Source: Candidatus Kapaibacterium sp. (GTDB lineage Bacteria > Bacteroidota > Ignavibacteria > Kapaibacteriales > UBA2268). Taken from it: a stretch of DNA of 64,000 nt. A program made the translations under genes and the position numbers. Below are positions 5,597 to 53,707 of this stretch, one piece after another. The notes beneath the pieces are model-generated. The model was not told the origin of the DNA and searched no databases. It saw only the letters and a program-made list of their open reading frames with translations. The stretch covers positions 17,715 to 81,714 of the forward strand of contig JAONBD010000001.1 of the NCBI GenBank assembly GCA_028376765.1. Reading direction: 5' to 3'. How positions within the stretch are numbered: position 1 is the first letter of the stretch; each line of letters opens with the position of its first letter.

Positions 5597-5920
5597 AAAC
5601 GCAAAAAAGTGTTACCAAGTGTTACCAGTTCTTTGAAAAAAAGTCATTGATTGCATGCATCGAGCGAAGTTCACTCGAAATGCAAAAGCGAAAGAGATAC
5701 TCAAGCCTCAGCACGTCATTCAGACTGGAGCGTAGCGGAAGGAAGAATCCAGTAAAAACCAGCACATACTGGATTCTTCAATCGGACTGCTGTACTCTTT
5801 CTGAATGACGAGCCATTGAAAAAGTGGAAGTGGTAACACTTTTAAATGCGAAAAAGTGTTACCAAGTGTTACCAGTTCTTTGGAAAAACGCAAAAATGTG
5901 TTACCAAGTGTTACCAAATG
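5597..5920. repeat. Composite repeat region. It has three direct copies of a ~40-bp unit centred on the tandem decamer GTGTTACCAAGTGTTACCA (5608-5627, 5855-5874, 5897-5916), one short inverted copy (5829-5838) and a palindromic hairpin element (5713-5809).
   Basis: Seen directly in sequence. The reverse complement of 5700-5876 aligns at roughly 85-90% identity with 53497-53707. Confidence 0.75.
5713..5809. repeat. 97-nt near-perfect palindromic element. The outer 11-bp stem is CGTCATTCAGA/TCTGAATGACG and the inner stem is GAAGAATCCAGTA/TACTGGATTCTTC. It is a candidate structured ncRNA or MITE-like element.
   Basis: The stems are visible by eye. A second copy, inverted and 1.5x duplicated, lies at 53563-53706. 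Confidence 0.55.
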
Positions 5921-5949
5921 TGTGAAAAATAAAATCAAGACAAAATTGG

Positions 5950-5986
5950 TCTTACTTCCATTTGTCAAAAAATAATATTAACTTTG
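5950..5986 (+). promoter_or_regulatory. Putative Bacteroidota sigma-A-type promoter for the E1 gene (-33 TTTG at 5953-5956, -7 TAACTTTG at 5979-5986)
   Basis: It matches the TAnnTTTG -7 consensus with a TTTG about 22 bp upstream. It is located about 45 bp upstream of the ATG at 6029 and downstream of the repeat region. Confidence 0.4.
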
Positions 5987-6028
5987 TAAAATTTGTTAAA
6001 AATGTAAATATTGAAATCGGAGTAAAAA

Positions 6029-8086
6029 ATGGCCGTTAAACCCGGAAAGAAAGGAAGACCTTCAAAATCTCAAAATACTAGTATTTCAAAAGAAGAAAAA
6101 TTAAAAGCTTTAAAATTAATGATTACGGCTCGTAAGACCGATGAAAAGCACCTTACACTTGTAAAACAAGGTAAATCATTTTTTCACATTGGTGTTTCTG
6201 GTCACGAGTGTATTCAAGTAGCGATTGCTCAAAACTTGGAACAACGTGATTGGGGTTGGACTTATTACCGAGATATGGCATTTTCTTATGCTAAAGGTAT
6301 GACCCCACAGGATTACTTTATGCTAGCATTTGCAAAGAAAGATTGCCCTTCTACAGGTGGCCGTCAGATGCCAGGTCACTTCGGTAACCCTGCATTGAAC
6401 TTGCCAACTCAATCATCTCCTACTGGAACTCAGTTCCTATCGGCTGTTGGGACTGCATTAGCTGCCAAAAAAGCTGGTGTAAATGATGTTACCTACGTTG
6501 CTTCGGGTGAAGGAACAACTTCGCAAGGTGAGTTCTACGAGGCTGTTAACTGGGCAACAAGGGAAAAATTAGGTGTGATTTTCTGTATTCAAGATAATAA
6601 ATATGCTATATCTGTAAAATCAGAAGATCAAATTATGGGTGGTACCGTTTCAGATTTATTTGCTGGGTATGACGATCTATTAAAATTACATATCGATGGT
6701 ACTGATTATGAAGAATCAGTCGCTGCTGCAAAACAAGCAATAGAGTATATCAGAGCTGGCAAGGGACCAGTATTATTACATGCTGATGTAGAAAGATTAC
6801 TACCTCACTCTTCATCTGATGATCATAGAAAATATAGACCTTTAGACTCTTTAGAAGATGCAAAAGAATCGAGAGATTGTATTAAAAAGCTATCTGCTAA
6901 AATGTTAGCTGATGGAGATATAACAGAAGAAGAATTAGAAATATTAAGCAAAGCTGTAAATACAGAACTTACCGAAGCAATAGATTGGGCTTGGGAGCAA
7001 GAAGATCCATCTGCTGAAGATTCGATTAAAGAGAACTTTGCAGATCCTTCAACTAGAGATTTGCCTTACGCTGACGAATCATTAGAAATTACTGGTGCAC
7101 CAGCAGTTCTTGTTGATGGTGTGAACCATGCCTTAAAAGAAGAATTAGCCAGAAATGAAAAAATCTTAGTATTTGGTGAAGATATTGAAGATAATAAAGG
7201 TGGTGTTTTTACTGCCACTCGTGGTCTTTCTACTCAGTTTGGAAGAGAAAGAGTATTCAACTCTCCTCTTGCTGAAGCCTCAATAATGGGGGTTGCATTA
7301 GGATTGGCAGTTAGAGGGTATAAACCAGTTGTAGAAATTCAGTTTGGAGATTATATCTGGCCATCATTTATGCAATGGAAAAATGAAGTTGCTGCAATGA
7401 GGTTTAGATCTAACGGTGGATTTTCATCTGCTGTTGTATGCCGTGTTGCTGTTGGTGGATATATTCATGGTGGTCTTTGTCATTCACAAAATATTGAATC
7501 GATATTTTCTCATGTTCCTGGAATTATGATAGCATATCCATCAAATGCTGCAGATGCAAAGGGGCTTTTAAAAGCTGCTTGTAGAATGGAAGATCCAGTT
7601 TTATTCTGTGAACACAAAGGAATGTATAGACTTCCTTTTGCAAGAGTAAACGAACCTGACGAAAACTATTTATTACCATTCGGGAAAGGTAAAATTGTAA
7701 AAGAAGGTAGTGATGCAACGATTGTTACCTACGGAATGACTTTGAAACAATCAGTAGATGCAGTTAAGAAAATTGAAAAAGAAACTGGCAAATCAGTTGA
7801 AATCATTGACTTAAGAACTATAGTTCCTTGGGATAAAGAATTGGTTCTTGAATCAGTTAAGAAAACTGGTAGAGCAATTGTAATACATGAAGATACAATG
7901 ACAACATCTGTATCTGGAGAAGTAGTATCACACATTGCCGACGAATGTTTCCAATATTTGGATGCTCCTGTTAGAAGATTAACAGCTAAGGATTCTCACA
8001 TTCCTTATCACCCAAATTATGAAAATGATGTACTTCCAACAGAGGAAAAAGTAAAAGCAGCAGTCGAAAGCTTGCTAAATTTCTAA
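6029..8086 (+). CDS. 2-oxoacid dehydrogenase E1 component, fused alpha+beta subunits (pyruvate/branched-chain/acetoin dehydrogenase E1, TPP-dependent)
   Basis: The alpha part has a TPP-binding region (YVASGEGTTSQGEFYEAVNWA). The beta part has AEASIMGVALGLAVRGYKPVVEIQFGDYIWP and a C-terminal transketolase-like domain. 685 aa is typical of fused forms. Confidence 0.85.
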   Translation: MAVKPGKKGRPSKSQNTSISKEEKLKALKLMITARKTDEKHLTLVKQGKSFFHIGVSGHECIQVAIAQNLEQRDWGWTYYRDMAFSYAKGMTPQDYFMLAFAKKDCPSTGGRQMPGHFGNPALNLPTQSSPTGTQFLSAVGTALAAKKAGVNDVTYVASGEGTTSQGEFYEAVNWATREKLGVIFCIQDNKYAISVKSEDQIMGGTVSDLFAGYDDLLKLHIDGTDYEESVAAAKQAIEYIRAGKGPVLLHADVERLLPHSSSDDHRKYRPLDSLEDAKESRDCIKKLSAKMLADGDITEEELEILSKAVNTELTEAIDWAWEQEDPSAEDSIKENFADPSTRDLPYADESLEITGAPAVLVDGVNHALKEELARNEKILVFGEDIEDNKGGVFTATRGLSTQFGRERVFNSPLAEASIMGVALGLAVRGYKPVVEIQFGDYIWPSFMQWKNEVAAMRFRSNGGFSSAVVCRVAVGGYIHGGLCHSQNIESIFSHVPGIMIAYPSNAADAKGLLKAACRMEDPVLFCEHKGMYRLPFARVNEPDENYLLPFGKGKIVKEGSDATIVTYGMTLKQSVDAVKKIEKETGKSVEIIDLRTIVPWDKELVLESVKKTGRAIVIHEDTMTTSVSGEVVSHIADECFQYLDAPVRRLTAKDSHIPYHPNYENDVLPTEEKVKAAVESLLNF

Positions 8087-8097
8087 ATAATTAATTT

Positions 8098-8142
8098 AAT
8101 TACGCCTGTTTGTGCTCATCTACAGACAGGCGTAATTTTTTA
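8098..8142. terminator. Rho-independent terminator (12-bp stem AATTACGCCTGT/ACAGGCGTAATT followed by TTTT) between convergent genes
   Basis: A perfect inverted repeat spans 8098-8109 and 8126-8137, followed by the T-run 8137-8140. Confidence 0.7.
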
Positions 8143-8147
8143 ATAAA

Positions 8148-8588
8148 TCATTTAGAGTGATTCTCCCAACGCAATGTGGGAGTAAAAAGCTTACCATCAT
8201 TTGAAATTGGGGTGGCTTTTAAGACTAAATTAGAGCCTTCAAAGCTGTAGTACCTTTTAACTTTTGTTCCAATCCAATTGGGGAACAAGCTTTGTTCTAC
8301 TTTGTGAACCACAAAATTTCTTTTTTTATTAATTTCAAATTTCCCGAAATAAGAAATATAATTGTTGAAAGAATTAATAATTTCTGACTCTTTTCCCTTT
8401 CTATAATCTGGATTTTTGAAATTGGTTCTTTGGATTGAGCCTAATTGAGCAGACATAAGTCCATCATTTGTATAGATTAGGAGGCCATTCACTTCTTTTC
8501 CGATAGGGTAATATATTTCTCCATCATCAGATTCCATGGTCATTGAAATAAGGTTCCAATTGCCTAAAAATTTTTCAATCATTGTCAT
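8148..8588 (-). CDS. Hypothetical protein, lipocalin-like fold suspected
   Basis: 146 aa. The N-terminus LGNWNLISMTMESDDG... resembles lipocalin-like domain proteins, but the match is weak. Confidence 0.4.
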   Translation of the reverse strand: MTMIEKFLGNWNLISMTMESDDGEIYYPIGKEVNGLLIYTNDGLMSAQLGSIQRTNFKNPDYRKGKESEIINSFNNYISYFGKFEINKKRNFVVHKVEQSLFPNWIGTKVKRYYSFEGSNLVLKATPISNDGKLFTPTLRWENHSK

Positions 8589-8644
8589 TTTATTCTATTT
8601 GTTTAATTTTATAACTAAACAAAAATACAATTTCTAGGAAATGA

Positions 8645-9589
8645 ATGAAAAAGATATTAATAACTGGTGCATTAGGTCAAATAGGTTCGGAATTAAGTTT
8701 AGAATTAGCAAGGAGATATGGTCGAGATAATATAATCCTGACAGATATAAGAGAAGAGGCAATTCCAGCTTTATCTGATTTCAAATACTACAAGGTAGAT
8801 GTTAGAGATAAAGCATCTTTAAAAGAAATATTAGAAAATAATAAAATTGATTCAATTTTTCATTTAGCAGCCATTTTATCAGCAAATGGTGAAAAAAATC
8901 CCCAGTTTTGTTGGGATGTAAATATGAATGGCTCTTTGAATATTTTAGATTTAGGTATAGAATTAAAATTATCCAAAATTTTTATCCCTAGTTCTATTGC
9001 GGCCTTTGGAGATGGAATTGATGTGAAAAATACAATTCAAGATTCGGTGCTAAGACCGAGTACAATGTATGGAGTAACTAAAGTAGCAGGGGAATCAATT
9101 GGGAATTACTACTTCGAAAAATTTGGTTTGGATGTAAGAGGGCTTCGTTATCCAGGGATTATCTCCTCAGAGACATTGCCAGGTGGTGGTACTACTGATT
9201 ATGCAGTAGAGATCTTTTATGAGGCAATTAAGAATAAAAAATATGAATCGTTTTTAAAAGAAGATGCTGTATTGCCCATGATGTACATGCCAGATTGTAT
9301 TAATGCTACTATTCAATTGATGGAAGCTGATGTTAAGAATTTAAGAAGACATGCAGATTATAATTTGGCAGCAATTAGCTTTGCTCCAAAAGATTTGGCT
9401 CAAGAAATTAAAAAAATCATCCCTGAATTTGAGATTAGTTATAAGCCTGATTACAGGCAAGAAATAGCAGATAGTTGGCCTCAAACAATTGATGATTCTT
9501 ACGCTAGAAAAGATTGGGCATGGGAACACGAATTTGGGATTGAAGCTATTTGCAAAGATATGATAGATAAACTTTCTAAAAAATTGTAA
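8645..9589 (+). CDS. tdh: L-threonine 3-dehydrogenase, extended-SDR / NAD-dependent epimerase-dehydratase type
   Basis: The N-terminus is MKKILITGALGQIGSELSLEL. The ~315 aa length and YxxxK region (YGVTKVAGE) are typical of UDP-galactose-4-epimerase-like Tdh in Flavobacteria. Its partner enzyme Kbl is encoded at 24948. Confidence 0.65.
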   Translation: MKKILITGALGQIGSELSLELARRYGRDNIILTDIREEAIPALSDFKYYKVDVRDKASLKEILENNKIDSIFHLAAILSANGEKNPQFCWDVNMNGSLNILDLGIELKLSKIFIPSSIAAFGDGIDVKNTIQDSVLRPSTMYGVTKVAGESIGNYYFEKFGLDVRGLRYPGIISSETLPGGGTTDYAVEIFYEAIKNKKYESFLKEDAVLPMMYMPDCINATIQLMEADVKNLRRHADYNLAAISFAPKDLAQEIKKIIPEFEISYKPDYRQEIADSWPQTIDDSYARKDWAWEHEFGIEAICKDMIDKLSKKL

Positions 9590-9635
9590 TTTATTGGCAT
9601 AATATTTTCTTGATAATAAAAAAAAGGAAATCATT

Positions 9636-9797
9636 ATGCCACCTTCAATATTAAAAGGACTATTTGTACTTCTATTCTTATTTAGCTTTGTATTGGTAAC
9701 TCAGCCTAAAGCAATTTGGAGAATGCCATCTAGCTTATTTGGCAAAGTAACTAAGAAGAACGATTCTGTAGATCCAAACGACATCAAATTATTTTAA
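9636..9797 (+). CDS. Small hypothetical membrane protein (53 aa, MPPSILKGLFVLLFLFSFVLV...)
   Basis: Unlisted short ORF with an AAAGGAAA RBS-like motif 7 bp upstream and a single hydrophobic helix. Confidence 0.3.
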   Translation: MPPSILKGLFVLLFLFSFVLVTQPKAIWRMPSSLFGKVTKKNDSVDPNDIKLF

Positions 9798-9803
9798 TAC
9801 TTA

Positions 9804-10376
9804 GTGTTAAAGTATTCTTACATAGTGTTTGTAATTTCCACACTATTTATGGTGTCATGTAGTCCATCACCTAGATTTTCATCAAGAATATCCAATGTAG
9901 AAAAACAAAAGCAAGAGCTGACTGAAATTCCTCACAAACTGAAACAAACTAAAAGAAATTTTAAAACTAACAATATTAAACCAATTGCTAAATTCCCAAA
10001 GGTCGAAAATAATTTTGATTATTTAGTTTTTGAATCTGCTAAAGAATGGCTAGGAACTCCGTATAAATGGGGTGGTGATTCCAAAAATGGAGTTGATTGC
10101 TCGGCTTTTGTTAAAAATGTAATGAAAACAGTTGGTGTTGATCTGCCAAGAACAGCAATTAATCAGTTTGAATTTTCCAGCTCTATTAGTTTAAGAAATG
10201 CTAAAATTGGAGATTTAGTATTTTTTAGAAAATCAAACCAAGTAAGCCATGTAGGGATTTACTTAGGCAAAAATAGGTTTATACATTCTTCGACTAGCAA
10301 AGGTGTAATAATTAGCAGTCTTGATGATAGCTGGTATCAAGACAATTTTTATTCGGTCGGAAGAGTAAAATTTTAG
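9804..10376 (+). CDS. NlpC/P60 (C40) family cell-wall peptidase, lipoprotein
   Basis: Signal/lipobox ...STLFMVSCS. A conserved Cys (GVDCSAFV) and His (SHVGIYLG) are in NlpC/P60 order. Confidence 0.75.
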   Translation: MLKYSYIVFVISTLFMVSCSPSPRFSSRISNVEKQKQELTEIPHKLKQTKRNFKTNNIKPIAKFPKVENNFDYLVFESAKEWLGTPYKWGGDSKNGVDCSAFVKNVMKTVGVDLPRTAINQFEFSSSISLRNAKIGDLVFFRKSNQVSHVGIYLGKNRFIHSSTSKGVIISSLDDSWYQDNFYSVGRVKF

Positions 10377-10927
10377 TCAATAATATCGCCATATTTTTCA
10401 GGATATGCTGGTAGTGGTAATGATCCAGGTATTCCAGTTAATGGAAAATCCTTTCTTAATGGATACAGTGGTTCTCCTGACTCAGGGTCAACAAAATCTT
10501 CTGGCATATAGAATCTTCTTAAATCTGGATGATTTGTAAATGTAACACCATACATATCATAAGTTTCCCTTTCGTACCAGTTACAACTTTCCCAAATCGA
10601 CGACAAACTAGGGGAGCTTGGGTCTTCTTCTTCTAATGGTACTCTTAATCGGACTCTGTGGTTATGTGTAAGAGAGTATAAAATATAAATAAGGTCAAAC
10701 CTGTTTTTAGGTCTATTCCAGTCAATAGCTGTTACATCCAAACATTGTTCAAACTTAGTATCATTACTATCTCGAAGATCTTTGGCTACCTTTAATACTT
10801 TATCTTTAGGTACAGTTATTGTGAGTTGATCTCTGTAAATGTACGTTTCTGGTTCTTTAACTGTTTTTGAAACGATTGCGATAATCGTATCTCTATTATT
10901 GATTGAATTTTGTTTTTCCATATCCAC
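10373..10927 (-). CDS. nuoC: NADH-quinone oxidoreductase subunit C (complex I 30 kDa subunit)
   Basis: Motifs FDLIYILYS...HNHRVRLRV...WESCNWYERETYDMYGVTFTNHPDLRR...YPLRKDFPLTG are characteristic of NuoC/Nqo5. Confidence 0.75.
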   Translation of the reverse strand: MDMEKQNSINNRDTIIAIVSKTVKEPETYIYRDQLTITVPKDKVLKVAKDLRDSNDTKFEQCLDVTAIDWNRPKNRFDLIYILYSLTHNHRVRLRVPLEEEDPSSPSLSSIWESCNWYERETYDMYGVTFTNHPDLRRFYMPEDFVDPESGEPLYPLRKDFPLTGIPGSLPLPAYPEKYGDIID

Positions 10928-10957
10928 AAATTAATTTTAATTGCAAATTAGTAAAAA

Positions 10958-12238
10958 TTATTGAAATTTGATTTCATTAATTGATTTTTCAAAAATTGTT
11001 TGGTAATAGTTGAATTGTGTTACTGGGCATTCAAAGTAAATTACAATTAAAGTATCTTCATCTGCTGCAACAAATTCAACAGAAGCAATTGGCAAATCAC
11101 CTTTGTTTACTTGTCTTTTAGTATTGAATATCGTTACTTTTTTATTACCAATTGTTTTTATTTTTTGAGATGCTATTGCATAATCGTGATAATCTTTGGT
11201 ATTCTTCCCATTTGAACCTTTCCAAAATTCAATTAAAGCATCAGGACCAGATACTTGAAATCTCTCACCCATATTTTTAGATACTCTTACTTTCGCCCTA
11301 GCACCTAGTGGTTTTTCTTCATCTTTTTTGTAGACAGATATTTCAAATGTTTCTTCATTTTCATTTGGCTCATCAAAATTAGATCTATGCCAGCCATTTG
11401 GTAACATTAAGATTACATCTTTGTTTTTGGAAGCAAAAGTGGAATATTTAATATCTTTATATTCTTGAAAATTAACACCTGCAATCTCACGTAATTTTTG
11501 TCTATCAATTTCAGCAAGATTCTTTTTGCCAATCTTGTCGTAGGAAAGTGCTCTATTATTAATTGCTCTGTGATGGTTCGGATCAAATTGAATTGCAACT
11601 GTGTAGGACTGAATAGCTTTTTCATATTCTTTATTTTGAAAGAGACTATTTCCAAGTTCATACAATGATTCTTTATTTATAAAATCATTTTTGATTGCTT
11701 TTTGAAAATCATTGATTGCATTATTCCATTTTTCTTGTCTTTGAAATACTCTTCCACGATGGAAAAAAGCAGAGCCATTATTTGGACTTATTTTCAGAGC
11801 TTCGTTCAAATCTCCCATGGCTAGTTCAATTTCATTTTTACCAATTAAAGAGCTACCTCTATTAATATAAGCTTCAACAAATTTAGAATCTATAATTATT
11901 GCCCTGTCAAAATCAGTTAATGCAAGTTCAACTTCATCATTGTAACCATAGCAAAGGCCTCGGGTATTATATGCTTCTGCAAATCTATCATTAATTAATA
12001 TTGATTTAGTGAGGCTTTCAATTGCCAAATCCAATTTACCCTCGTTCATATAAGTGTATCCTTCCCAATAGAAAAGAATGTGATTGTTTGGATCTAGCTC
12101 AATACCTTTATCTATTGAATTGTGAGCTTCAATAAAATTTGCTTCTTGTATTGATTTTTGAGCTGATTCTATATATTTAACTAATTCAGGATTAATCGCG
12201 GTTTGTAGGTAAAAAAATAAGAGTATAAAATTCATCAT
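10958..12238 (-). CDS. TPR-repeat protein with signal peptide and uncharacterised C-terminal domain
   Basis: The N-terminal half has multiple 34-aa TPR-like repeats (AEAYNTRGLCYGY..., VEAYINRGSSL...). Confidence 0.65.
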   Translation of the reverse strand: MMNFILLFFYLQTAINPELVKYIESAQKSIQEANFIEAHNSIDKGIELDPNNHILFYWEGYTYMNEGKLDLAIESLTKSILINDRFAEAYNTRGLCYGYNDEVELALTDFDRAIIIDSKFVEAYINRGSSLIGKNEIELAMGDLNEALKISPNNGSAFFHRGRVFQRQEKWNNAINDFQKAIKNDFINKESLYELGNSLFQNKEYEKAIQSYTVAIQFDPNHHRAINNRALSYDKIGKKNLAEIDRQKLREIAGVNFQEYKDIKYSTFASKNKDVILMLPNGWHRSNFDEPNENEETFEISVYKKDEEKPLGARAKVRVSKNMGERFQVSGPDALIEFWKGSNGKNTKDYHDYAIASQKIKTIGNKKVTIFNTKRQVNKGDLPIASVEFVAADEDTLIVIYFECPVTQFNYYQTIFEKSINEIKFQ

Positions 12239-12843
12239 TTGCTAAGCCATTCGTTTAGTTTGTTATTATGTTCTGTTTTATCGAATCGGGAATTGTTATA
12301 AAAGCCCTTTAAGTATCTCTGACGATACGCTTCGTATAATGTTACAGCAACAGATACAGAAATATTTAAACTTTGTATCATACCTACTTGAGGGATAATA
12401 AAATTACCATCGGAAAGAGATAAAGCTTTTTCGGTAACTCCTTCGTGTTCATTACCAAAAACAAGAGCAATTTTCTGTGTAAAATCCATTTCATACAAAT
12501 CAACAGAATCTGTAGCTAAATGAGTTGTGAAAATAGTAAAACCATCTTTTTTAAGGTTAGTAAAACAGTCTTGTAAATCATTATAATAATTACAATTCAC
12601 CCATTTTTTTGCTGAAGCAGAAGACTGTTTCCCTAATTTCGGTTTAGTTTGTCCAGTATGGTATATTAAATCAACATCTAATATACCAGTAGCATCGCAA
12701 GATCTTAAAGCCGCCGAAATGTTATGAGGGTCATGAACATTTTCCATGACCACTTTCAAATCTGGTTGCCTATTACTAAGCACTCTCTCTACCTTTTCAA
12801 CTCTTTCTTTTGTTCGGATTTCAGTATAGTCTATATTGCTCAT
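12235..12843 (-). CDS. SpoU/TrmH-family RNA 2'-O-methyltransferase
   Basis: SPOUT motifs VFGNEHEGVT and IPQVGMIQSLNISVSVAVTLYE are present. Confidence 0.75.
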   Translation of the reverse strand: MSNIDYTEIRTKERVEKVERVLSNRQPDLKVVMENVHDPHNISAALRSCDATGILDVDLIYHTGQTKPKLGKQSSASAKKWVNCNYYNDLQDCFTNLKKDGFTIFTTHLATDSVDLYEMDFTQKIALVFGNEHEGVTEKALSLSDGNFIIPQVGMIQSLNISVSVAVTLYEAYRQRYLKGFYNNSRFDKTEHNNKLNEWLSK

Positions 12844-12853
12844 ATTTTATTAT

Positions 12854-14479: not shown

Positions 14480-14546
14480 TTTTTTTTCCTATTTTGCTTT
14501 TAATTGTTACAAAATTAACTTTTATTTTAGAAAAAATACAATTGTA

Positions 14547-20348: not shown

Positions 20349-20719
20349 ATGTCTTAATAGCTGAAGATTCTCCAACAATGAGAAGAGTAGTAACTGGAAT
20401 AGTTTCTCAAGCATTTCCAGATACAGAAATGTTTGAAGCAGGTGATGGTAAAGTTGCTTGGGATTTATTAAAAATTGAAGAAATAGACTTAGTTCTAAGT
20501 GATTGGCTTATGCCAGAAATGAATGGACTGGAACTAATAAAGAGCATCCGATCTAACGAAAGGCTTAAAAATTTGCCATTTGTAATGGTTTCCACAAAAG
20601 GGATGAAACAAGATATTATTGAAGCAATAAGAGCTGGTGTTTCTGATTATTGTGTTAAACCTATTCAACCCCTAATTCTTGAAAATAAAATAAAAAATGC
20701 ACTAGCAAAAGGACAATAA
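20345..20719 (+). CDS. Single-domain CheY-like response regulator
   Basis: REC motifs are present (DLVLSDWLMPEMNGLEL, K near the C-terminus). The start overlaps the metF-fusion stop. Confidence 0.8.
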   Translation: MNVLIAEDSPTMRRVVTGIVSQAFPDTEMFEAGDGKVAWDLLKIEEIDLVLSDWLMPEMNGLELIKSIRSNERLKNLPFVMVSTKGMKQDIIEAIRAGVSDYCVKPIQPLILENKIKNALAKGQ

Positions 20720-42432: not shown

Positions 42433-42506
42433 TCTCTAATTTTGTTATTAAAACGACCACAAATATACAAAATAGGAGCATTATGCTAATAATAGATATT
42501 TTTAAA

Positions 42507-43271: not shown

Positions 43272-43512
43272 ATTGATTTAATATTATCATAATTTAATGA
43301 AATTTCGGAAAAAAACGAACTTTTGTTGTACTTTAATAAAAACAAAGGTGTTAATGCGATTATTAAATAGAATTCTGATTCATTAAAGTTTTATAATTTA
43401 AACACTTAAAAAAAATATCTAGGGTTGTATTCTTAAATTATCCCTCAATCTAATAATTAAGTTCTAGTGTAGAATTTAAATGTTAGATAAGCTGTAAATT
43501 TCACTATACTTT

Positions 43513-44811: not shown

Positions 44812-44882
44812 GGCTTATATGGTTTATTTATTCTGAAATTTTACGTCTCAAAAATAATAACTAAAAAACTGAAAAATAAGCA

Positions 44883-44910
44883 AAGCTTGTAAAAATTAAT
44901 TTACAAGCTT
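44883..44910 (-). terminator. Rho-independent terminator for the giant gene (11-bp perfect stem AAGCTTGTAAA/TTTACAAGCTT)
   Basis: A near-perfect 28-bp palindrome, followed on the minus strand by TGCTTATTTTTCAGTTTTTT. Confidence 0.6.
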
Positions 44911-44934
44911 ATTGTTTATTTTAAAAACTCTACT

Positions 44935-47900
44935 TTATTCATGCTCCATGATAATTATTGGGATTCTTGTAATTGAATTATCATTCTGTACTTCAATAAA
45001 ATATAATCCTGATGGGAAATCTAAATTAAGTTTATAAGTTCCTTTAAAATCAATATCATAATTTGCGATAGTTAATCCAGCAGAATTATATAATCTTTTA
45101 ATTTTATTTGTTCTATTAAGCTTACCATTAACCATAACAAAATTTGTTGCTGGTTGCGGGTAAACTTGTATATTATTAGCGCTTAGTTCTTCTTTCTCTA
45201 TTAGACTTGAAATAATATTATCTTCATCAACATCTTCAATTTCAAAATCATTAGTAATTTTAAATGCTCTAAAAATTAAATTATTTGATGGTTCAGAAAA
45301 TATTTCACCATTGATTGGGTCGAAAGTATTTCCTTGATTCATAATTTCGTTTGATAATAGGAAGAAAGTATTATTATTTATAATATCTAGGTCATAATGC
45401 CAAGTCTTTGTTGGTTCTTCACTAAAATACTCATTAGAGTTTAAGTGGGTTAGTTCAATTGGATCGTTAATATCTACACTTAGTATATCATTTTCACCTA
45501 AATGTGAATCATCTAAAATGTTGGTTTTATGTTCTTCGAACATCACAACAGCTAATGAATCTGAAACTGTAACCCTAATATCTCTTGGGTAGGAATCTTC
45601 CAATTTATGTACTAAAGAGTTAGATTCCCATATTCTTTGAGATTCGTTCCAATGATAAACTAAAATTTGATCGGCATCTTTATCGTTCATGTCATGTACT
45701 GAAACTGCAAGCAAACCCTTTCCATTAAAAATATCAGAGTCAACATCATTTATCATAAAGCTTTCATCTGATTCAAGAAAAATGTTAGGCGAAGACCATG
45801 CACTACCATCCCAGTAAGATGATAGTAATTGTTGTGAATTGCCAAAATCACTTGATGATTTCCAAGTTACTAAGCATTGATCATCGCTTGTCCTTAAAAG
45901 ATTTAAATCAGTTTCAGTCCCTTCAGTTTCATAAATAATTTCTGGATTGGAATGAGTGAAATTTGTTCCATCAAAATCAATAGTAGCATAATAAACGTCT
46001 GATGTCCCAGTTTCAGAATTGGCAACAAACCAAGAAAGCATTGCTTGGTTATCCGATAAAGCAGCAACATAAGGCCTTCCTTCAACTCTTCCTTTATCAA
46101 AAGTTTCAAAATCATCTTCGATAGGGGATATATGTAATAGCTCCTTAGTTCCAAGATCATATACTGCAAACCAAATATCAGTTGTATTAAATAGATATTC
46201 TAAGCTTACATTATCTGGAACATTTGTAGTATTGTGTCTATTTTGCATCCAAGTAACATATACTTTATTGTTATTTATACTTACCTTTGGATTGCTCATA
46301 CCAGAAGAATTTTCTGAAATAACAGTTGAGTTCAAAAATTTATTGGATTCTTTTTCAAAATACGAAATCATTAGCTTGGCAGATTTAGTTTTGATATCTT
46401 GTTCTAGCCAGCAAGCAACTAAATTATCATTATCAGAATCTAATTCTGGTTGTGGCGAGGTAGGGCTATCATAACTAAAGCTAGCTTGCCCGCTTTGCTC
46501 ACCCTCTTGTAATTTGTAACCCTTTGGTTTTGCACCTAAACCGCTTGGCCATCCAACTGGTGTTGGAATAATTGTTGGTATTTGATTATCAGTTAAATGA
46601 AATGTGTGTATCAGTTCAGGACCAAAAATAGTTTTTTTAACAAGTCCCCAACAAAAAGAAGCTGTTGCTTTTGCAAATATCTGATTGCTAACCGAAGAAT
46701 ACTTTCTGTAAGATGGGTAAGGTAAATCATGATTCATTGAAATATTTCCAAATAAAAACCTTATTGTTACAGATACATGAGCGTCTGCCAAACCAGAAAG
46801 TAAATTTGCATCAATTCCTATCGCAAGTCCTAATCCAAGTTGAGAGTAAGCAAAAGATGCAATATCTGTATTGTTTTCATCTGGATTTTCTTGATTGAAA
46901 CTTCCAGCATCTAGTTTGCCAATATTCCCCCAAGAATTAGCATCTGATCTTACATTCAGAAACTGACCCTTAGATAAAGCATAAGCTAAATTTATATCAA
47001 TATTAATCTGAAATAAATCGGCTATTTGTAATCTTCTTTCTTCTTTTAATATTTCTCTAACCTTATTTAAGGTGCCTATTATACCCGGACCTAAAAGATT
47101 ACCCTGAACAGAATATGAATTGAAGTGACTAAAATTAATATTATTTTTATTATCAAGTAAATTTGAATAATTATCAATAGTAAAAACTTTTTCAGATACA
47201 TTCACACCAAAAACATTATCCTGATAGCTAATTGTGGGCTTGTCAAGAATAGATAGTTTTCTAGTCTTAGTGTCATAATTAAGTTTGATTTTTAGCTTAG
47301 AAAATGGCAACGAAATACCTTTACCTCCAAGGACTGGAAGAGCACTAGGGAGGTCGTAAGACCTAATTGCATCAGAATTTAAATAGTAGCTAGCTGGAAT
47401 TGGTTTTACCGCAAATGGGTCAAATATTTTACTATCAGTTGCTGCAATATAGCTAGTAACTTCAGGCTTATCCAAAAAACCTTCTAATTCAAAACTTATA
47501 TTTTCATCATTTATAGTTATGTTGCTATAGCTCATATTAGAATTAAACCAATCAGGTCTTGTTCTGTTTACATTTATTGGGTAGGAAATAGATGTATCAG
47601 GAATCGGATTGTCATCAAAATATGATTCTAAAATTAAATAGGAATGTGGAGATTTTAATTTTGACACATCATATGTAAAAAATGATTGTTTTGTATTTGT
47701 ACTATTTATAGGAATAGTAATTGTATCACCTAGAGCCTGGTTAGCTATATTAACTGCCCTAACAACGAATTTCGAAACAGCATCTTCTTGATTCCCAATC
47801 GAAAACTTTCTTACATCACTCATTGTATTTGGTGCAATTGCTTCAAAAATATTACTAAAATCACCATTCAATTTAGGAGGTATTCCAGGGCGAGCTAAAA

Positions 47901-50900
47901 GTGGAAAGTAGAATGAATAAGGCTGGTTTAAATAAGTAAATTGACATTCAACCCAAGAACCTGCTTTAGCAGAAGCAGTTTTAAAAGGAATTTGTACTTT
48001 GCTGCCAGGTGTGAAACTAGGACTAATTGTTTCCAAAATTTGCTTGTTTGGCTCATTTGGATTCCTATCGTAAATTGTTAGTTTAGTGTTTTCAGCTCCA
48101 TTGAATTGCTCGGAGAAGAATTCTAGCTCAATTTGATCTTCATTTCCTTCAGTGAAGAAACCAAAACCTCCATTTGATTTCATAAACAATGGAATATCAG
48201 TTCCATTGGATTCTACATTTAATATCCAGTTAAATAAAGTGGGTTCAGTTTTATCTGTTTCATAAATGTTGAGACTCATTTCATAATTTCCTTCTGATAA
48301 CCTGCCCATATTTAGGGGTAAAACTAAAGAAGACAAAAAGTTATTCTGATTAAACAAAAAGTTACTTTTAGAGATAAAGCCACTACCATAAAAAATACCA
48401 AAATCACTTAATTCACTTGATAATGATTTATTGTAAAGATTTAAATATAGAAATCCATTTAAGTCTTGCTCATAGTAGTTATCTTCAGAAAATTCTAAAT
48501 ATGATAGTACAGATTCAGAATTAATAATAAAGTCGGAATCATGCATAGTTTTAATAATATCATTATAGTCTAATGCCTTTGACCAGAAACTGAAAGCTGA
48601 AATCTCTCCATCAATTGATAGGCTATTATCAAGGGTTTCATTATAGCCAATATTAATGTTGTATTCTTGAACTTCGCTTAAGTTAATACTTTCATTATCT
48701 AGGGCAAGAGTTTTTACTAATGTACCATTGATAAAGATATTCATAGTTCTTCCACCTTCAACAGTACAAGTAAAATGAGTCCATACATTGTTATTAAATG
48801 ACTGAATGGTTTGGATTGATTCATTATTGACTTGAAAAACAATATTTCCAGCTGAATTTAAATTTACCTGAGCAAATTTAGAATAGTCTTGCTCTTCTTC
48901 GGGGCCATCAATCTGCTGATTAAAGCTAACAAAAGATTGATTTAAATCAGATTTAGTTTTGAACCACCCAGTAAATGAAAAATTACCAAATCCCAAAAAG
49001 TTTGCGGTTTCTGAACCAGATCTTGAATAAATAGAGACACTATCGCCATACAGCTCTAAAGACCTGTTTGTTAGCTCATTAGCTGACGTAAAACTTCTTT
49101 GGGTCAAATCTGAAATATCGTATAAATAAGTAGGATCTAAAAACCATTTACATTGCCCACCATAAGTAAGGTCTAAATTTTCAATGTAATCTAAGCCAGT
49201 TCCTTTAAAATCCCAATAGTGGTTTAGATAAAATGGATTATTATAAATGTTTTCAGATAAATTAAAACTAAATAAATTATTAATTTCTGATTCTCCAAGT
49301 GGAGTTTTTGATACAGCAACTTCACCCAAATTACCTATAAAACTTCTATCGACTGAAATAGGATTAGCTTGGAATTGCCCAGAATTTCCGAAAATCCAAT
49401 ATCCAACAAAATCCTCTGTAACATTTTGGGATGAGCTTCCATTATCGCTTACTAATTCAGCTTCTTTATTTCCATCAACATACAATTGATATTTGGTAGA
49501 TTGAGCTTCACCACCAGTAAAATTGCTTTCGTAAGAAACAACAACATGGTGCCATTCATTATCGTTAAATGTATTTTCTGAACTTATAATAAAAGGATTT
49601 CCGCCATCTTTATTGATATTATAAAAGTTAAGTTTTCCATCTTTTAAATAAATGAATTTGCTTACTTGATCAGGAGAATTTATATCATTGGTAGTTTGGT
49701 AAGAAACTATTGATCCATCTTTCTTTGATGTCTTAAATTTTGCACTAATTGAATAACCAGATATCTCATCATTTTCCGTAAAGTTAATTTTATCAGTATT
49801 TTTAGTGATTGCAAACTGTTGGTCAGCATCTGAAAATTGTAAAATATATCTTTTATAATTTTCAAGGTTAAAGTCAATATCTACTTTATTTGTATTTTCC
49901 GGCATTCCTTCAAATTTAAATATTTCATAAATATTCTGTCCATTTGTATAGCTTATTGTATCTGGAATATTTACTTCATACTTAGCATCAAAAGGTAATA
50001 AGCTTTCTAGTAATGGATATGGTGTTTTCAGCTCTACCGTTATGAGTGTATCAGATAGAAAAACTCCATTTGGGTCAAGAGCTTGGGCGTGAATAAATCT
50101 TGTAAAAGGGTTTATATTTGCAAAGTCAATAATTGTTTCAGCTATAGGGTAACCCCGATCGCTATTTACTTGCAAGATTGTATCTTTTACAATTCTATTA
50201 TTATAGGTAAGTATTTTTAATTCAACAGTTTCACAATTGGAAAATGATGGTTCAATACTAATGGTTACGGGAGTTATTTTCTTCTGATTTGTATCAATTG
50301 GGTTATTTGGTCGCCTATCAAAATTTATGGGATTTAGAGAAATTCTTGGCGAATTAGGTATAACTTCTATTTGATGAAATACCTCAAGTCCATCTGTTGG
50401 ACCACCATCTGCCATTACAATAGCTTCCATTATTGATGTGCCAGTTGGAATAGTATCCATTTGAATTGAAAAAACAGCGTCAGTAATTTCGCTTTGATGA
50501 TATTGAGGAAGAATTGTATCGTTATAAACAGTTCCATCATTTGATGCTAGTGAAATGAATACTTTCCTTGTTCTTGGTGGTAAATCGAAAACTCTGAATC
50601 TATGAGCAAAACGATCTTCAAATTCGGGCCATTGGTCTGATGGGTTATCTACTCTTTCAAAATTATTTGAAAAAAACTCCCAAGTATTCCTTTCAGATCC
50701 AATATACATTTCAGGAGGTTGAATATTTAATGATAATAATTCTTCTTCACCATTTATCAAACCATTTTCTTGGAAGACGGTAATTTTAAGTTGAGAGCCC
50801 AAAACTAATGGTAGGTTCTCTAAATCTAGTACCCACTCAGCATTTGTTAATTCGGTTCCAGTTAATGTTTTTATTGTTTCTTGAGAATTATCAAGTCTGT

Positions 50901-52545
50901 TGCCATGATAATCAACAAGTTCTAAAACTAACTTATTAGTATTATTTGAAATAGAATCAATAGTAATTGTATCTTTTATATTTTTTGTGCCTATCCGGTA
51001 CGGTTGGAAATTTCTCGCCGATGTAACATGAATTTTTAAAGGGTAGATGCTTATAGCTTTCTCGATTTCAAATCCTATTCCAGGATTCTCAGAAGTATTT
51101 GCATTAACAATAATCGATGATTTTAAGCTCAAATCACTAATATTATGGCTATAAGTTTCATCTGAACTTGTATTATCAAAGTATACTGAATCAATTGTTT
51201 CTTGATTAATATAATCATAAGTTTTTATGTTTACATTATCAAAATAATTTGCGTCAGATACAGTATAGTTATTAGTTTTTGTATAAGTAGCCTTAAAAGG
51301 ACCAAAACCATTATCCGAACTTAAAGTGAAATTGTTGTAAAGATCGCCAAGTAATATTTTTTGCTTATGCCTAGCTAATGGAATTGCTGCCTGCAAGGAA
51401 CCATCGTTAGTATTATAATTAGTTATTATTACTTTCTCAATTTCATCATTATCATCTAAAAGGAAAATGGCAAATTTTCTTGGGTTTATAGTATTATTAT
51501 CATCGGTAAAAGTATCTTCAATATCATTTAAGGTTAATGTTATATCAATTGATTGAATATTCTCGGACCAAATAGTCATTGTGTCAATACTTAAATGGTA
51601 TATATTCCCATCATCTACTTTGGTATATCCCCTTGGAGCGTCGGTGGGATTAGTGATCAAAGCAAATGAACTTTTGCTAAAGGCTTGGTCAAGACTAAAA
51701 TATCTAAATCGTTTTTTACTTTTAGGATTACCGTAGGTAAGTAGTTCTAAATAACCATAGTATCTATCTAATTCATTTACTTCAAAACAATCTGAATCAA
51801 TTATTTCGGAATATACTGACTCATAATTAGTAGCTTGACCTTCAAATGTCTCCTTAATTAACCTTGTTCCATAAGGGTCGGGTGGACTGGTAAAAAACAA
51901 ATCATTATCGAACATCGAATACGTTAGATTATTTAAATATAAAACATCTGATTCACTGTAGGTTCCGTGTAAACTAATTGGATATATATTAACTTGATCG
52001 ATTTGCCCTTTGAAACCATGATGATTGCTAGTTCTAATTCCATCAACAATATTTCCCTTTGGCAAATTTCCAAAAATTAGTTTTTGAGGTCTGTTATAAG
52101 AAAACTCAATTATTGTACTTTGTGGATTTGATAAGTTACCAGAAACAAATAGTTTACGAAAATCTTGTGAAATGGATAGATGGTTCCATACTCCAAACTT
52201 TATATTAGATTGTAAAGTTATACTTTTACGCCCTAAATTTTCAATAAAATCGTTCAAAAAATGGAATGTAATGTCACCATTTGGTTCTAATTCAACTCTC
52301 CAAAAATCATCCATTTCAGTTCTGTTAAGTTCATCTAGTGCCCCATTAGTAGGATTTGCACCTACTATATTGCCTGGTTTAAGGGGCTTAAACCAAAAGC
52401 TAATTGTCCAATCTTGCCTATCTAAAAGATCAGTGTCATTAAAAATGACGCTAGAGCTATCAGTTTCTAAGTAAACTGCTGGATTTGCCTGTCCCAATAG
52501 AATTGATCCATTTATTAAAAGCAAAATTGTAATAATTAGTTTCAT
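44935..52545 (-). CDS. Giant (2536 aa) secreted multi-LamG/concanavalin-A-like-domain protein with T9SS C-terminal sorting domain
   Basis: Signal peptide MKLIITILLLINGSILLGQA. There are at least three LamG-like segments (DWTISFWFKP..., WHHVVVSYES...YQLYVDGN..., VWTHFTCTVEGG...IFINGT). The C-terminus IQVYPQPATNFVMVNG...GLYFIEVQ is a T9SS CTD. Confidence 0.8.
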   Translation of the reverse strand: MKLIITILLLINGSILLGQANPAVYLETDSSSVIFNDTDLLDRQDWTISFWFKPLKPGNIVGANPTNGALDELNRTEMDDFWRVELEPNGDITFHFLNDFIENLGRKSITLQSNIKFGVWNHLSISQDFRKLFVSGNLSNPQSTIIEFSYNRPQKLIFGNLPKGNIVDGIRTSNHHGFKGQIDQVNIYPISLHGTYSESDVLYLNNLTYSMFDNDLFFTSPPDPYGTRLIKETFEGQATNYESVYSEIIDSDCFEVNELDRYYGYLELLTYGNPKSKKRFRYFSLDQAFSKSSFALITNPTDAPRGYTKVDDGNIYHLSIDTMTIWSENIQSIDITLTLNDIEDTFTDDNNTINPRKFAIFLLDDNDEIEKVIITNYNTNDGSLQAAIPLARHKQKILLGDLYNNFTLSSDNGFGPFKATYTKTNNYTVSDANYFDNVNIKTYDYINQETIDSVYFDNTSSDETYSHNISDLSLKSSIIVNANTSENPGIGFEIEKAISIYPLKIHVTSARNFQPYRIGTKNIKDTITIDSISNNTNKLVLELVDYHGNRLDNSQETIKTLTGTELTNAEWVLDLENLPLVLGSQLKITVFQENGLINGEEELLSLNIQPPEMYIGSERNTWEFFSNNFERVDNPSDQWPEFEDRFAHRFRVFDLPPRTRKVFISLASNDGTVYNDTILPQYHQSEITDAVFSIQMDTIPTGTSIMEAIVMADGGPTDGLEVFHQIEVIPNSPRISLNPINFDRRPNNPIDTNQKKITPVTISIEPSFSNCETVELKILTYNNRIVKDTILQVNSDRGYPIAETIIDFANINPFTRFIHAQALDPNGVFLSDTLITVELKTPYPLLESLLPFDAKYEVNIPDTISYTNGQNIYEIFKFEGMPENTNKVDIDFNLENYKRYILQFSDADQQFAITKNTDKINFTENDEISGYSISAKFKTSKKDGSIVSYQTTNDINSPDQVSKFIYLKDGKLNFYNINKDGGNPFIISSENTFNDNEWHHVVVSYESNFTGGEAQSTKYQLYVDGNKEAELVSDNGSSSQNVTEDFVGYWIFGNSGQFQANPISVDRSFIGNLGEVAVSKTPLGESEINNLFSFNLSENIYNNPFYLNHYWDFKGTGLDYIENLDLTYGGQCKWFLDPTYLYDISDLTQRSFTSANELTNRSLELYGDSVSIYSRSGSETANFLGFGNFSFTGWFKTKSDLNQSFVSFNQQIDGPEEEQDYSKFAQVNLNSAGNIVFQVNNESIQTIQSFNNNVWTHFTCTVEGGRTMNIFINGTLVKTLALDNESINLSEVQEYNINIGYNETLDNSLSIDGEISAFSFWSKALDYNDIIKTMHDSDFIINSESVLSYLEFSEDNYYEQDLNGFLYLNLYNKSLSSELSDFGIFYGSGFISKSNFLFNQNNFLSSLVLPLNMGRLSEGNYEMSLNIYETDKTEPTLFNWILNVESNGTDIPLFMKSNGGFGFFTEGNEDQIELEFFSEQFNGAENTKLTIYDRNPNEPNKQILETISPSFTPGSKVQIPFKTASAKAGSWVECQFTYLNQPYSFYFPLLARPGIPPKLNGDFSNIFEAIAPNTMSDVRKFSIGNQEDAVSKFVVRAVNIANQALGDTITIPINSTNTKQSFFTYDVSKLKSPHSYLILESYFDDNPIPDTSISYPINVNRTRPDWFNSNMSYSNITINDENISFELEGFLDKPEVTSYIAATDSKIFDPFAVKPIPASYYLNSDAIRSYDLPSALPVLGGKGISLPFSKLKIKLNYDTKTRKLSILDKPTISYQDNVFGVNVSEKVFTIDNYSNLLDNKNNINFSHFNSYSVQGNLLGPGIIGTLNKVREILKEERRLQIADLFQINIDINLAYALSKGQFLNVRSDANSWGNIGKLDAGSFNQENPDENNTDIASFAYSQLGLGLAIGIDANLLSGLADAHVSVTIRFLFGNISMNHDLPYPSYRKYSSVSNQIFAKATASFCWGLVKKTIFGPELIHTFHLTDNQIPTIIPTPVGWPSGLGAKPKGYKLQEGEQSGQASFSYDSPTSPQPELDSDNDNLVACWLEQDIKTKSAKLMISYFEKESNKFLNSTVISENSSGMSNPKVSINNNKVYVTWMQNRHNTTNVPDNVSLEYLFNTTDIWFAVYDLGTKELLHISPIEDDFETFDKGRVEGRPYVAALSDNQAMLSWFVANSETGTSDVYYATIDFDGTNFTHSNPEIIYETEGTETDLNLLRTSDDQCLVTWKSSSDFGNSQQLLSSYWDGSAWSSPNIFLESDESFMINDVDSDIFNGKGLLAVSVHDMNDKDADQILVYHWNESQRIWESNSLVHKLEDSYPRDIRVTVSDSLAVVMFEEHKTNILDDSHLGENDILSVDINDPIELTHLNSNEYFSEEPTKTWHYDLDIINNNTFFLLSNEIMNQGNTFDPINGEIFSEPSNNLIFRAFKITNDFEIEDVDEDNIISSLIEKEELSANNIQVYPQPATNFVMVNGKLNRTNKIKRLYNSAGLTIANYDIDFKGTYKLNLDFPSGLYFIEVQNDNSITRIPIIIMEHE

Positions 52546-52749
52546 TTATTTTCCTTCTTAGTTGATATTTTTAAATTTAAAATATGAATAATATTATTGA
52601 ATTACAAATGAAATAAATGCCATTTGATTTTTTATCCAAAAGCTATAAAACTAATATGAAAAAGGAATGAGATTAACCTAGAATGAGAGCTTCAAAATAT
52701 TTAAAAATTTGGAATCAAAATATAAAATTAATAAGATGAGTATTGAAAA

Positions 52750-53406
52750 TCAGCCTAATTTCCAACCATTGTCAGAAATTGTTTTCCTAATTGCCGAAAT
52801 TAAATAATAACGCCTTTCATCATTGAGCGTAGAACCAAATGAAATTCTTTTTGCTCCTTCAAAAAATATGCTAGTTCCTCTTTTTGAGTTTCTGAAGTGT
52901 GAAGATTTTTCACTTATTTTTGAAATATCAGCCCAATCAAATCTCTTCTTTAAACCAACCTTACCAATTCCTTTGAAAATCTTACCACCCTGACTATTTA
53001 ATGTGATTTCTACTTTTCCCCAAATAGACATGAGAGCTAGACTCCAAAAAATAATAGAACCAATCAAAAATGGTATTCCAAAAAGTGATAGTAGTAAATC
53101 AAATTTTGCATTATATATTTGAGAGCCATAAATACCGCCAATAGAAGCTCCAGACCAAATTAACATAAATGGAACTAAGAAAAATGCAATAGCTGAGCGG
53201 GTTGATGCTCCAATTGTAGTATTGTTATAATCAGAAATTATCCAAGTTCCATTTGGAGAATCTTGAATATTAAAATTATAATCGAAAGTACTATTAAGGC
53301 TTTCAGATATTACAAATACATTATTACACGCAGAACACCTAGCAATATCCGATTGAATATTGATATATTCAGATTTTATTCCTGAATTACATTTTGGACA
53401 TTTCAT
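52750..53406 (-). CDS. Hypothetical membrane protein with N-terminal CxxC...CxxC zinc-ribbon
   Basis: MKCPKCNSG...CSACNNVF, followed by three hydrophobic helices. Confidence 0.5.
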   Translation of the reverse strand: MKCPKCNSGIKSEYINIQSDIARCSACNNVFVISESLNSTFDYNFNIQDSPNGTWIISDYNNTTIGASTRSAIAFFLVPFMLIWSGASIGGIYGSQIYNAKFDLLLSLFGIPFLIGSIIFWSLALMSIWGKVEITLNSQGGKIFKGIGKVGLKKRFDWADISKISEKSSHFRNSKRGTSIFFEGAKRISFGSTLNDERRYYLISAIRKTISDNGWKLG

Positions 53407-53494
53407 TGATATTTTTTAATTCCATTTATTGATAATGATTTAATAAAAAATATTGAGAAAATCTTGATTATCATTTTTATCTCAATTTATAAGT

Positions 53495-53707
53495 AATCTG
53501 GTAACACTTGGTAACACTTTTTCGCTTTTAAAAGTGTTACCACTTCCCTTTTTTAACTGGCTCGTCATTCAGAAGGAGGACGACAGTCCGACTAAAGAAT
53601 CCAGTATGGGCAGGTTTTCACTGGATTCTTCGCTTCGCTCTGAATGACGTGGAACAGCTAGTTTTTACTGGATTCTTCCTTCCGCTTCGCTCAAGTCTGA
53701 ATGACGG
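53495..53707. repeat. Inverted copy of the 5597-5920 composite repeat. It has an inverted double decamer at 53498-53517, a direct GTGTTACCAC at 53534-53543 and a palindromic hairpin element at 53563-53649 plus a partial duplicate to 53706.
   Basis: 53497-53707 aligns with the reverse complement of 5700-5876. Confidence 0.75.

Follow-up and report, generated by a model that had tools for sequence, protein, structure and literature searches.

The stretch of Candidatus Kapaibacterium sp. DNA analyzed here (64,000 nucleotides; contig JAONBD010000001.1 of assembly GCA_028376765.1, positions 17,715 to 81,714; hereafter the window) carries a gene for an integron-type tyrosine recombinase that is directly followed by a composite repeat, and an inverted homologue of this repeat is located approximately 47.6 kb away. 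The two loci, at 5468-5930 (left) and 53485-53830 (right), are tentatively best explained as copies of a non-coding repeat, modular in build and bound by protein, that forms part of the 3' flank of the integrase gene and has one diverged ectopic duplicate. The core box of the repeat, AAAAGTGTTACCA, is present once per copy within a 34-bp site resembling a lox site and additionally as half-sites in a 10-bp register. From their sequence, it is plausible that the 34-bp sites are secondary targets of the adjacent integrase. The ordinary business of this enzyme would lie on the other side of its gene, where an attI-like site and a promoter box that points outward precede cassettes bounded by attC-like sites.

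Organization of the inverted composite repeat

A repeat search of the window reveals three inverted pairs between the two loci: 5734-5875 with 53498-53639 (142 nt, 88% identity), 5711-5763 with 53657-53709 (53 nt, 92% identity), and 5467-5550 with 53747-53830 (84 nt, 81% identity). A previous interpretation of this DNA made without database searches (the sequence-only reading) had described inverted copies bracketing 47.6 kb, a recombinase gene abutting the left copy, and decamer arrays with a hairpin in each copy. All three features are recovered, as the three pairs bracket this segment, the recombinase gene ends where the first module (A) begins, and the copies contain ten exact GTGTTACCA decamers and a hairpin (C) that folds with z = -5.4 (left) and -4.1 (right). 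The homology of approximately 180 bp at roughly 85-90% identity given in that reading is real, but its extent was underestimated, because the third pair (84 nt) was absent from it. Additionally, the left copy does not begin about 130 bp past the recombinase stop codon, as had been proposed; it begins at 5467, the last base of the stop codon, and the 130 bp corresponds to the distance to the first decamer.

In the left copy, module A (5468-5550, plus strand) directly follows the stop codon and forms an inverted pair with module A of the right copy (53747-53830, minus strand), which lies 131 bp from the start of a hybrid histidine-kinase gene and has no recombinase remnant beside it. Module y (5551-5604, plus strand) contains CACCTAAA twice together with a small hairpin and is shared with a locus of another genus (L013, described below), and a terminator-like hairpin is located within this flank on the minus strand (5563-5549). 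The next module, B1 (5605-5627, plus strand), consists of the half-site AAAAGTGTTACCA and, after it in a 10-bp register, another decamer, with no inverted partner adjoining the module. Module z (5653-5683, plus strand) is a small hairpin with GAGCGAAG, read from the sequence.

Hairpin C, which is roughly 90 nt in length, extends from 5714 to 5810 on the plus strand of the left copy, with the outer stem CGTCATTCAGA/TCTGAATGACG and the inner stem GAAGAATCCAGT/ACTGGATTCTTC; its DNA fold has an energy of -26 kcal/mol (z = -5.35 relative to shuffles). The right hairpin C (53563-53649, minus strand) is likewise defined by its DNA fold, with the z value given above relative to shuffles. Hairpin C of the left copy is followed by an inverted box (5831-5843, minus strand), which is one arm of the left 34-bp site, and by the tandem 42-nt units B2 (5852-5874) and B3 (5894-5916) on the plus strand, each of which contains two GTGTTACCA decamers and for which Tandem Repeats Finder reports a period of 10. 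B3 has no inverted partner and is a half-site. The right copy contains B2 (53499-53521, minus strand) with two decamers, and an extra 5' half of hairpin C, designated C' (53661-53706, minus strand), which is 92% identical to the left 5' arm.

Modules A and C, the inverted box and B2 are thus common to both copies, whereas y, B1, z and B3 are confined to the left copy and C' to the right copy; this partly shared and partly copy-specific composition indicates that the copies are true but mosaic duplicates. The left copy would represent the native 3' flank of the integron-type integrase gene. The right copy, which has A, C, a full site and the extra half hairpin and is devoid of y, B1 and z, would represent an ectopic duplicate, and its set of modules argues for a true duplicate rather than half of a reciprocal exchange. 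A GCGAAG-type motif recurs through the composite repeat. Small open reading frames (ORFs) within the repeat are neither conserved nor convincing. A search of the whole window against Rfam returns nothing at the gathering threshold, and the left locus gives only chance-level matches (E up to 1).

Conserved boxes form 34-bp sites with a lox-like layout

The ten exact copies of GTGTTACCA in the window all fall within the two loci, compared with an expectation of 0.23. In each copy, the inverted box and the first B2 box together form a 34-bp site with perfect inverted arms of 13 bp and an asymmetric spacer of 8 bp; loxP and FRT are built in the same 13-8-13 manner. The left site (5831-5864) reads TGGTAACACTTTT-AAATGCGA-AAAAGTGTTACCA, with a fold z of -6.0, and the right site (53509-53542) reads TGGTAACACTTTT-TCGCTTTT-AAAAGTGTTACCA on the plus strand. 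The right spacer TCGCTTTT is the reverse complement of AAAAGCGA, which differs from AAATGCGA at one of eight positions (position 4), and the orientation of the spacers reveals that the two sites are mutually inverted. A scan of the 64 kb for perfect palindromes, with an arm length of 11 nt or more and a spacer length of 3-12 nt, finds four, compared with 0-3 in shuffled sequences. Two of them are the 34-bp sites, and the other two are the inner stem of hairpin C and a terminator-like hairpin at 44883.

The region surrounding the site is identical between the copies at 49 of 51 nt, compared with 144 of 175 (82%) elsewhere in the repeat (Fisher p = 0.0125). This conservation, together with the identity of all ten 9-mers, indicates that the boxes are the constrained part of the repeat, which points to protein binding. 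A simple tyrosine recombinase may bind the boxes, and the adjacent enzyme is the most economical candidate; in that case, each copy would serve as a secondary, att-like site in double-stranded form. The sites share with Cre/loxP and Flp/FRT the 34-bp 13-8-13 structure, a simple recombinase without an arm-binding domain as the candidate enzyme, and the expectation that an inverted pair would give inversion. In contrast to those systems, the spacers are not identical but have one mismatched base, the sites are embedded in composites of 350-460 nt with half-sites and hairpins, and the candidate enzyme is IntI/XerA-like rather than Cre- or Flp-like.

Binding by a transcriptional regulator has to be weighed as well, in which case the repeat would be a shared cis-regulatory module that provides operators for E1 on the left and for a 218-aa gene and a LamG/T9SS (type IX secretion system) gene on the right. 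Direct repeats in a 10-bp register combined with a palindrome, as present here, are a typical operator layout. The B2/B3 boxes in both copies face the adjacent start codon from approximately 95-115 nt upstream, and a conserved TAACTTTG box that belongs to E1 itself is retained immediately downstream of the composite repeat. However, the homology exceeds 340 nt and includes hairpins, which is far beyond the needs of an operator, and the module is absent from the relatives of E1. Additionally, the neighboring response regulators have no DNA-binding domain, and the homologous region in L013 faces the 3' ends of convergent genes. A regulatory role of this kind is considered improbable.

The adjacent recombinase resembles integron integrases

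The recombinase gene (4622-5467, plus strand) encodes a protein of 281 aa with the Pfam domains Phage_integrase and Phage_int_SAM_4. The catalytic residues R, K, H-x-x-R, H and Y are all present and occupy invariant columns of the family alignment. The protein scores 226.9 with the NCBIfam model NF040815 ("site-specific tyrosine recombinase/integron integrase"), above the cut-off of 220, and 218.5, in two stretches, with the integron integrase model TIGR02249, below the cut-off of 265. Its best match in the PDB is the Vibrio IntI4 structure 2A3V (E = 4e-41, in two stretches), followed by XerA, and IntI residues 213-244 (approximately), which constitute the IntI-specific insertion, have no counterpart in it. 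As judged from its sequence, the recombinase is an integron-integrase-like enzyme without the IntI insertion. The XerC/D-family assignment made in the sequence-only reading is not retained, as the scores are far below the cut-offs of both Xer equivalogs (183 versus 335 for TIGR02224 and 190 versus 330 for TIGR02225).

The protein is composed of a SAM-like core-binding domain and a catalytic domain only, with no arm-binding domain, which suggests an enzyme of the kind that uses core sites with inverted arms. A simple and catalytically intact tyrosine recombinase therefore adjoins the left copy, and the full left 34-bp site is located 364 bp downstream of its gene.

The absence of this domain also bears on the possibility that a lambda-type integrase encoded elsewhere uses the decamers as arm-type sites, the loci being relic att arms of an integrative element. 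As in the P' arm of lambda-type systems, tandem repeats in a 10-bp register are found directly downstream of an integrase gene, and identical tandem decamers separate an integrase gene from a tRNA gene in three unrelated elements, where the GTGTTACCAAGTGTTACCA array adjoins a lambda-type integrase (L005, 508-526; L006, 377-395; L024, 12243-12272). These three elements are among the 19-mer matches described below, and they illustrate a known role of such arrays that depends on an arm-binding domain. Unlike these arm sites, the loci of the window have no arm-binding recombinase beside them and no direct-repeat att core in common beyond products of the palindromic modules, and in L024 the decamers have the opposite orientation with respect to the integrase gene. 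The DNA bracketed by the copies is housekeeping in content, and a search for tRNA genes in the window found none. An origin as arm sites is therefore regarded as extremely unlikely. The tRNA gene of L005, L006 and L024, which come from Myxococcota, a deltaproteobacterium and IMG/VR, is apparently the same, and these contigs seem to represent a family of integrative elements that target a tRNA gene and have this arm-type site in common.

An integron-like platform on the other side of the integrase gene

The region of the window from 900 to 5467 has the layout of an integron-like platform, in which the integrase gene is accompanied by an attI-like motif and a TAnnTTTG box that points outward, together with attC-type hairpins that end in AAACGTTAG and are placed between small genes of the opposite strand. 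The attI-like conserved motif TTTATTTTTACCGTTGTGC (4526-4544, minus strand) is located between the recombinase gene and the first upstream gene, and the putative outward promoter box TATATTTG is found at 4585-4592 on the minus strand. The motif ends in ACCGTTGTGC and aligns with CAACGTTAGCAG, AAACGTTAGTAGC, AAACGTTATAGGC and AACCGTTGGCAG in four other loci, so that its AACGTT/ACCGTT end is present in five loci, in each of which the motif is placed just before a different first gene. The stretch upstream of the recombinase gene is 86% identical over 58 nt to that of L010-L012, which encode a 73% identical integrase, and this value appears to be higher than expected for coding DNA at such a protein identity.

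Two imperfect palindromes with AAC/GTT cores, in one orientation, separate the genes of the platform in the manner of attC sites. The first (2751-2803, minus strand), with R'' GGTTAAC and R' GTTAGCA, ends in TAAACGTTAGCA and has a fold z of -2.0; the second (1607-1674, minus strand) ends in TAAACGTTAGGC and has a fold z of -2.5, and its GTTAGGC fits the canonical integron core GTTRRRY. The exact 10-mer TAAACGTTAG is present only in these two palindromes, compared with an expectation of 0.085. A hand-written attC descriptor missed both sites of the window when used as a scan and is too strict and noisy. The cassette-like genes (1677-4489, minus strand) encode proteins of 138 aa (no Pfam family), 414 aa (an esterase with a T9SS tail) and 350 aa (with a T9SS tail).

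A similar arrangement is observed in other metagenomic contigs, with equally short integrases that are 48-61% identical to the window protein. Among approximately 90 homologue loci, AACGTT[AG][GT] matches 15 times upstream on the opposite strand versus 2 times on the same strand. The locus L029 (3000-6819) contains a gene-hairpin-gene-hairpin array with sites of approximately 105-130 nt (TTTGGC...GCCAAG..AAACGTTAGC), L013 (2300-4730) contains two attC-type sites around a 152-aa gene, and similar layouts are found in L015 (5400-10000), L065, L027, L110 and L111. In a more distant clade (L035-L042), GTTR sites are located downstream on the same strand. One of the contigs with such a platform has a length of 1.2 Mb and the look of a candidate phyla radiation (CPR) genome. 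The integrases encoded beside these cassette arrays align to the window protein in 281 columns with no insertion.

The IntI-specific insertion has been reported to be essential for integron function (PMC8138268), and no paper on cassette arrays with insertion-less integrases was found in the part of the literature that was covered. The resemblance to integrons such as that of V. cholerae IntIA (2A3V) includes IntI4 as the best solved relative, the attI-like motif, the outward box and the attC-like palindromes with GTTAGGC and GTTAGCA, together with the gene-attC-gene-attC arrays of the relatives L029, L013 and L015. The window differs from these integrons in that the I2 helix region, the insertion specific to IntI, is missing from the enzyme, the TIGR02249 score does not reach the cut-off, and the composite repeat, the sequence of which is not attC- or attI-like, is located on the other side of the gene. 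Arrays of attC type beside insertion-less integrases would not be counted as complete by standard integron finders, and they bear on the evolution of IntI from Xer-like enzymes.

Two further observations concern the cassette arrays of the relatives. The loci L111, L112 and L113, which come from several samples, share an identical integrase (P0026) and the same downstream genes, and two of the three contigs break approximately 540-560 nt upstream of the integrase gene, close to where the first cassette gene ends; these breaks are consistent with strain-variable cassette arrays that interrupt assemblies. In L015, units of 86-98 nt with 97% identity are located between cassette-like genes (5531-5616, 7412-7509 and 9750-9902). 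They read GTTAGAC...GGCTAAC on both strands, with a GTTAG core start and a CTAAC end, and are possibly mini-cassettes without an ORF.

The relation of the repeat to the integrase

The locus L013, which belongs to another genus and encodes an integrase 61% identical to that of the window, contains a downstream region that is collinearly homologous to A-y-B1, including CAAAAAAGTGTGAAAAAGTGTTACC and GGTTCTTTGAAA. The chained local alignment of the two regions has a z of 4.7, and the score is reached by none of 300 shuffles, whereas four controls have z values of 0.1 to 2.3. In L013, a 62-nt part of A that includes the last integrase codons is present in duplicate (5562-5623 and 6467-6528) around a 214-aa gene. 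The integrase gene of L026 has its 5' end duplicated together with the attI-like motif (8069-8188 and 9939-10058). Each of these duplications brackets one or two genes, a pattern suggestive of recombination or insertion that has occurred repeatedly at both flanks of such integrase genes. Additionally, GTGTTACCA or GATGTTACCAG is found at the attI-like position in L111 and L029, and since these loci are related, this constitutes a single weak observation.

Several results weigh against a repeat that is proper to the integrase flank. The closest integrase homologue (73% identity; L009-L012) is followed by a spacer of 95 nt with a terminator and no repeat, and GTTACC is not enriched near the integrase homologues across the family. 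A comparison of the composite repeat with the attI-like and attC-like sites of the window reveals no similarity (z at most 1.1). The ends of hairpin C have no AAC/GTT cores, and the composite repeat is itself neither an attC nor an attI.

The 73% identical homologue without a repeat would be readily accommodated if the repeat were a member of a passive dispersed family, the alternative already named in the sequence-only reading; this would be a mosaic similar to repetitive extragenic palindromes (REP), bacterial interspersed mosaic elements (BIME), BOX elements or miniature inverted-repeat transposable elements (MITEs), of which two members are opposed by chance in the window and the boxes of which are bound by an unrelated host or mobilizing protein. 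The mosaic build, in which a module of one copy may be missing from the other or doubled in it, down to a half hairpin, fits this explanation, as do the strong hairpins, the intergenic position of both copies and the recurring GCGAAG-type motif. E. coli BIME/REP, pneumococcal BOX elements and MITEs are likewise intergenic and non-coding, with variable numbers of modules and strong hairpins. In contrast to these elements, neither terminal inverted repeats nor target-site duplications are seen at the ends of the copies (5468 and approximately 5930; 53485 and 53830), two copies are seen in the 64-kb window, and one of them is syntenic with the integrase across genera, as A-y-B recurs beside an integrase gene in another genus. 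A passive family is rated as somewhat unlikely; if it is the correct explanation, the finding is an ordinary one.

Searches for further copies argue in the same direction. No repeat module is found in 46 kb from three relatives with an 88-89% identical E1, and scans of genome, metagenome and viral collections from which the source genome itself is absent yielded only chance matches or unrelated decamer arrays. Specifically, a 19-mer scan of GTDB representative genomes gave eight single matches in unrelated taxa, a 25-mer scan of metagenomes gave no match, and viral scans with the hairpin and the 34-bp site gave no match. The nine viral matches to the 19-mer are unrelated decamer arrays that are origin-like beside primase or helicase genes or are arm sites beside an integrase and a tRNA gene. 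As a separate observation, the IMG/VR loci L019-L023 contain intergenic GGTAACAC/GTGTTACC boxes in both orientations near primase, helicase or primase-polymerase genes, and these clusters are iteron-like arrays, probably replication origins.

Inversion between the two copies

Given the inverted orientation of the two full sites, an exchange at these positions would flip the intervening segment, and active recombinase-controlled inversion of the whole 47.6 kb, as raised in the sequence-only reading, is therefore to be considered. The arrangement of two full inverted 13-8-13 sites with a simple tyrosine recombinase adjoining one of them would allow such an event, and this part of the proposal stands. 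Spacer heterology blocks exchange in Cre- and Flp-type systems, however, and the spacers differ here at one of eight positions (position 4), so that the crossover regions are not identical. Additionally, the copies are 8-19% diverged, which indicates that they are not homogenized. According to Pfam, the interior contains E1, ABC-F, ClpX, ClpP, LigA and SMC, in agreement with the housekeeping content proposed previously; the genes at both junctions of the segment are intact, with no split gene, and no TAnnTTTG promoter box is present in either copy of the repeat.

The comparison with relatives provides no synteny support for an inversion. In the three relatives with an 88-89% identical E1, this gene is the sole one in common with the window, and its neighbors differ from one relative to another; these relatives neither support nor exclude a past inversion. 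The neighbors of the integrase homologues are not present in the window.

Base composition was considered as a further trace of inversion. The bulk GC skew reflects the coding strand and gives no information on this point. In a model of G versus C at fourfold sites, the strand-linked term differs between the inside and the outside of the segment (likelihood ratio p = 0.01) and one preferred boundary is at 53.96 kb, which would hint at a discontinuity, but the best left boundary is at 24.9 kb instead of 5.9 kb and the repeat-defined segment ranks 33rd of 858. A related observation, based on small counts, is that G versus C at fourfold sites, when expressed on the plus strand, is positive from 25 to 53 kb and near zero or negative elsewhere, a pattern that includes even the two plus-strand genes embedded in the minus-strand block. 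A compositional discontinuity near 24.9 and 53.96 kb is possible. Taken together, a controlled switch of the whole segment is very unlikely. If the preferred explanation of a duplicated integrase flank with secondary recombination sites is correct, exchange between the inverted sites would at most be a rare and essentially one-way event that inverts the 47.6 kb, and would not operate as a phase switch.

A smaller inversion, confined to the left copy, had also been proposed on the basis of a direct unit at 5608 and an inverted half-site at 5829. These elements do constitute a perfect 13-nt inverted repeat (5605-5617 on the plus strand and 5831-5843 on the minus strand), 213 bp apart and just downstream of the recombinase gene, and this size is typical of invertons. 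The candidate resembles E. coli fimS with FimB/FimE and the invertible promoters of Bacteroides in that a recombinase gene is located next to short inverted repeats. Unlike these invertons, however, it has a half-site at one end, since B1 has no second arm, and the segment contains neither a TAnnTTTG box on either strand nor an ORF of note; the larger candidate differs in that it comprises 47.6 kb of core genes. Furthermore, the right copy lacks B1 and is otherwise conserved. The proposed local switch of approximately 200 bp is accordingly judged to be extremely unlikely.

The broadest proposal that might be derived from these results is that an insertion-less integrase serves two kinds of sites, namely folded attC sites of cassettes on one side of its gene and double-stranded lox-like 34-bp sites on the other, the second inverted copy of which, 47.6 kb away, would allow the platform to invert or otherwise rearrange a large block of the core chromosome; in this strong form, it is highly doubtful. 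If the boxes are indeed targets of the neighboring enzyme, the locus would represent an integron platform with a second, lox-like class of sites acting on the core chromosome, and cassette capture would be linked to large-scale genome plasticity in the little-studied Kapabacteria.

Neighboring genes

Beside the right copy, the gene at 52750-53406 (minus strand) encodes a 218-aa zinc-ribbon/membrane protein, the best homologues of which are at most 65% identical and are found in Flavobacteriia and Cytophagia, in contrast to E1, the best non-self homologues of which are 88-89% identical. The 218-aa gene may be an accessory gene that was acquired horizontally. Outside the bracketed segment, a direct repeat of 300 nt with 76% identity (60979-61278 and 62150-62449) represents the receiver domains encoded by a pair of neighboring response-regulator genes. 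One member of the pair is fused to SpoIIE and the other to a histidine kinase, and both are located downstream of a gene for a 2336-aa multi-PAS hybrid kinase.

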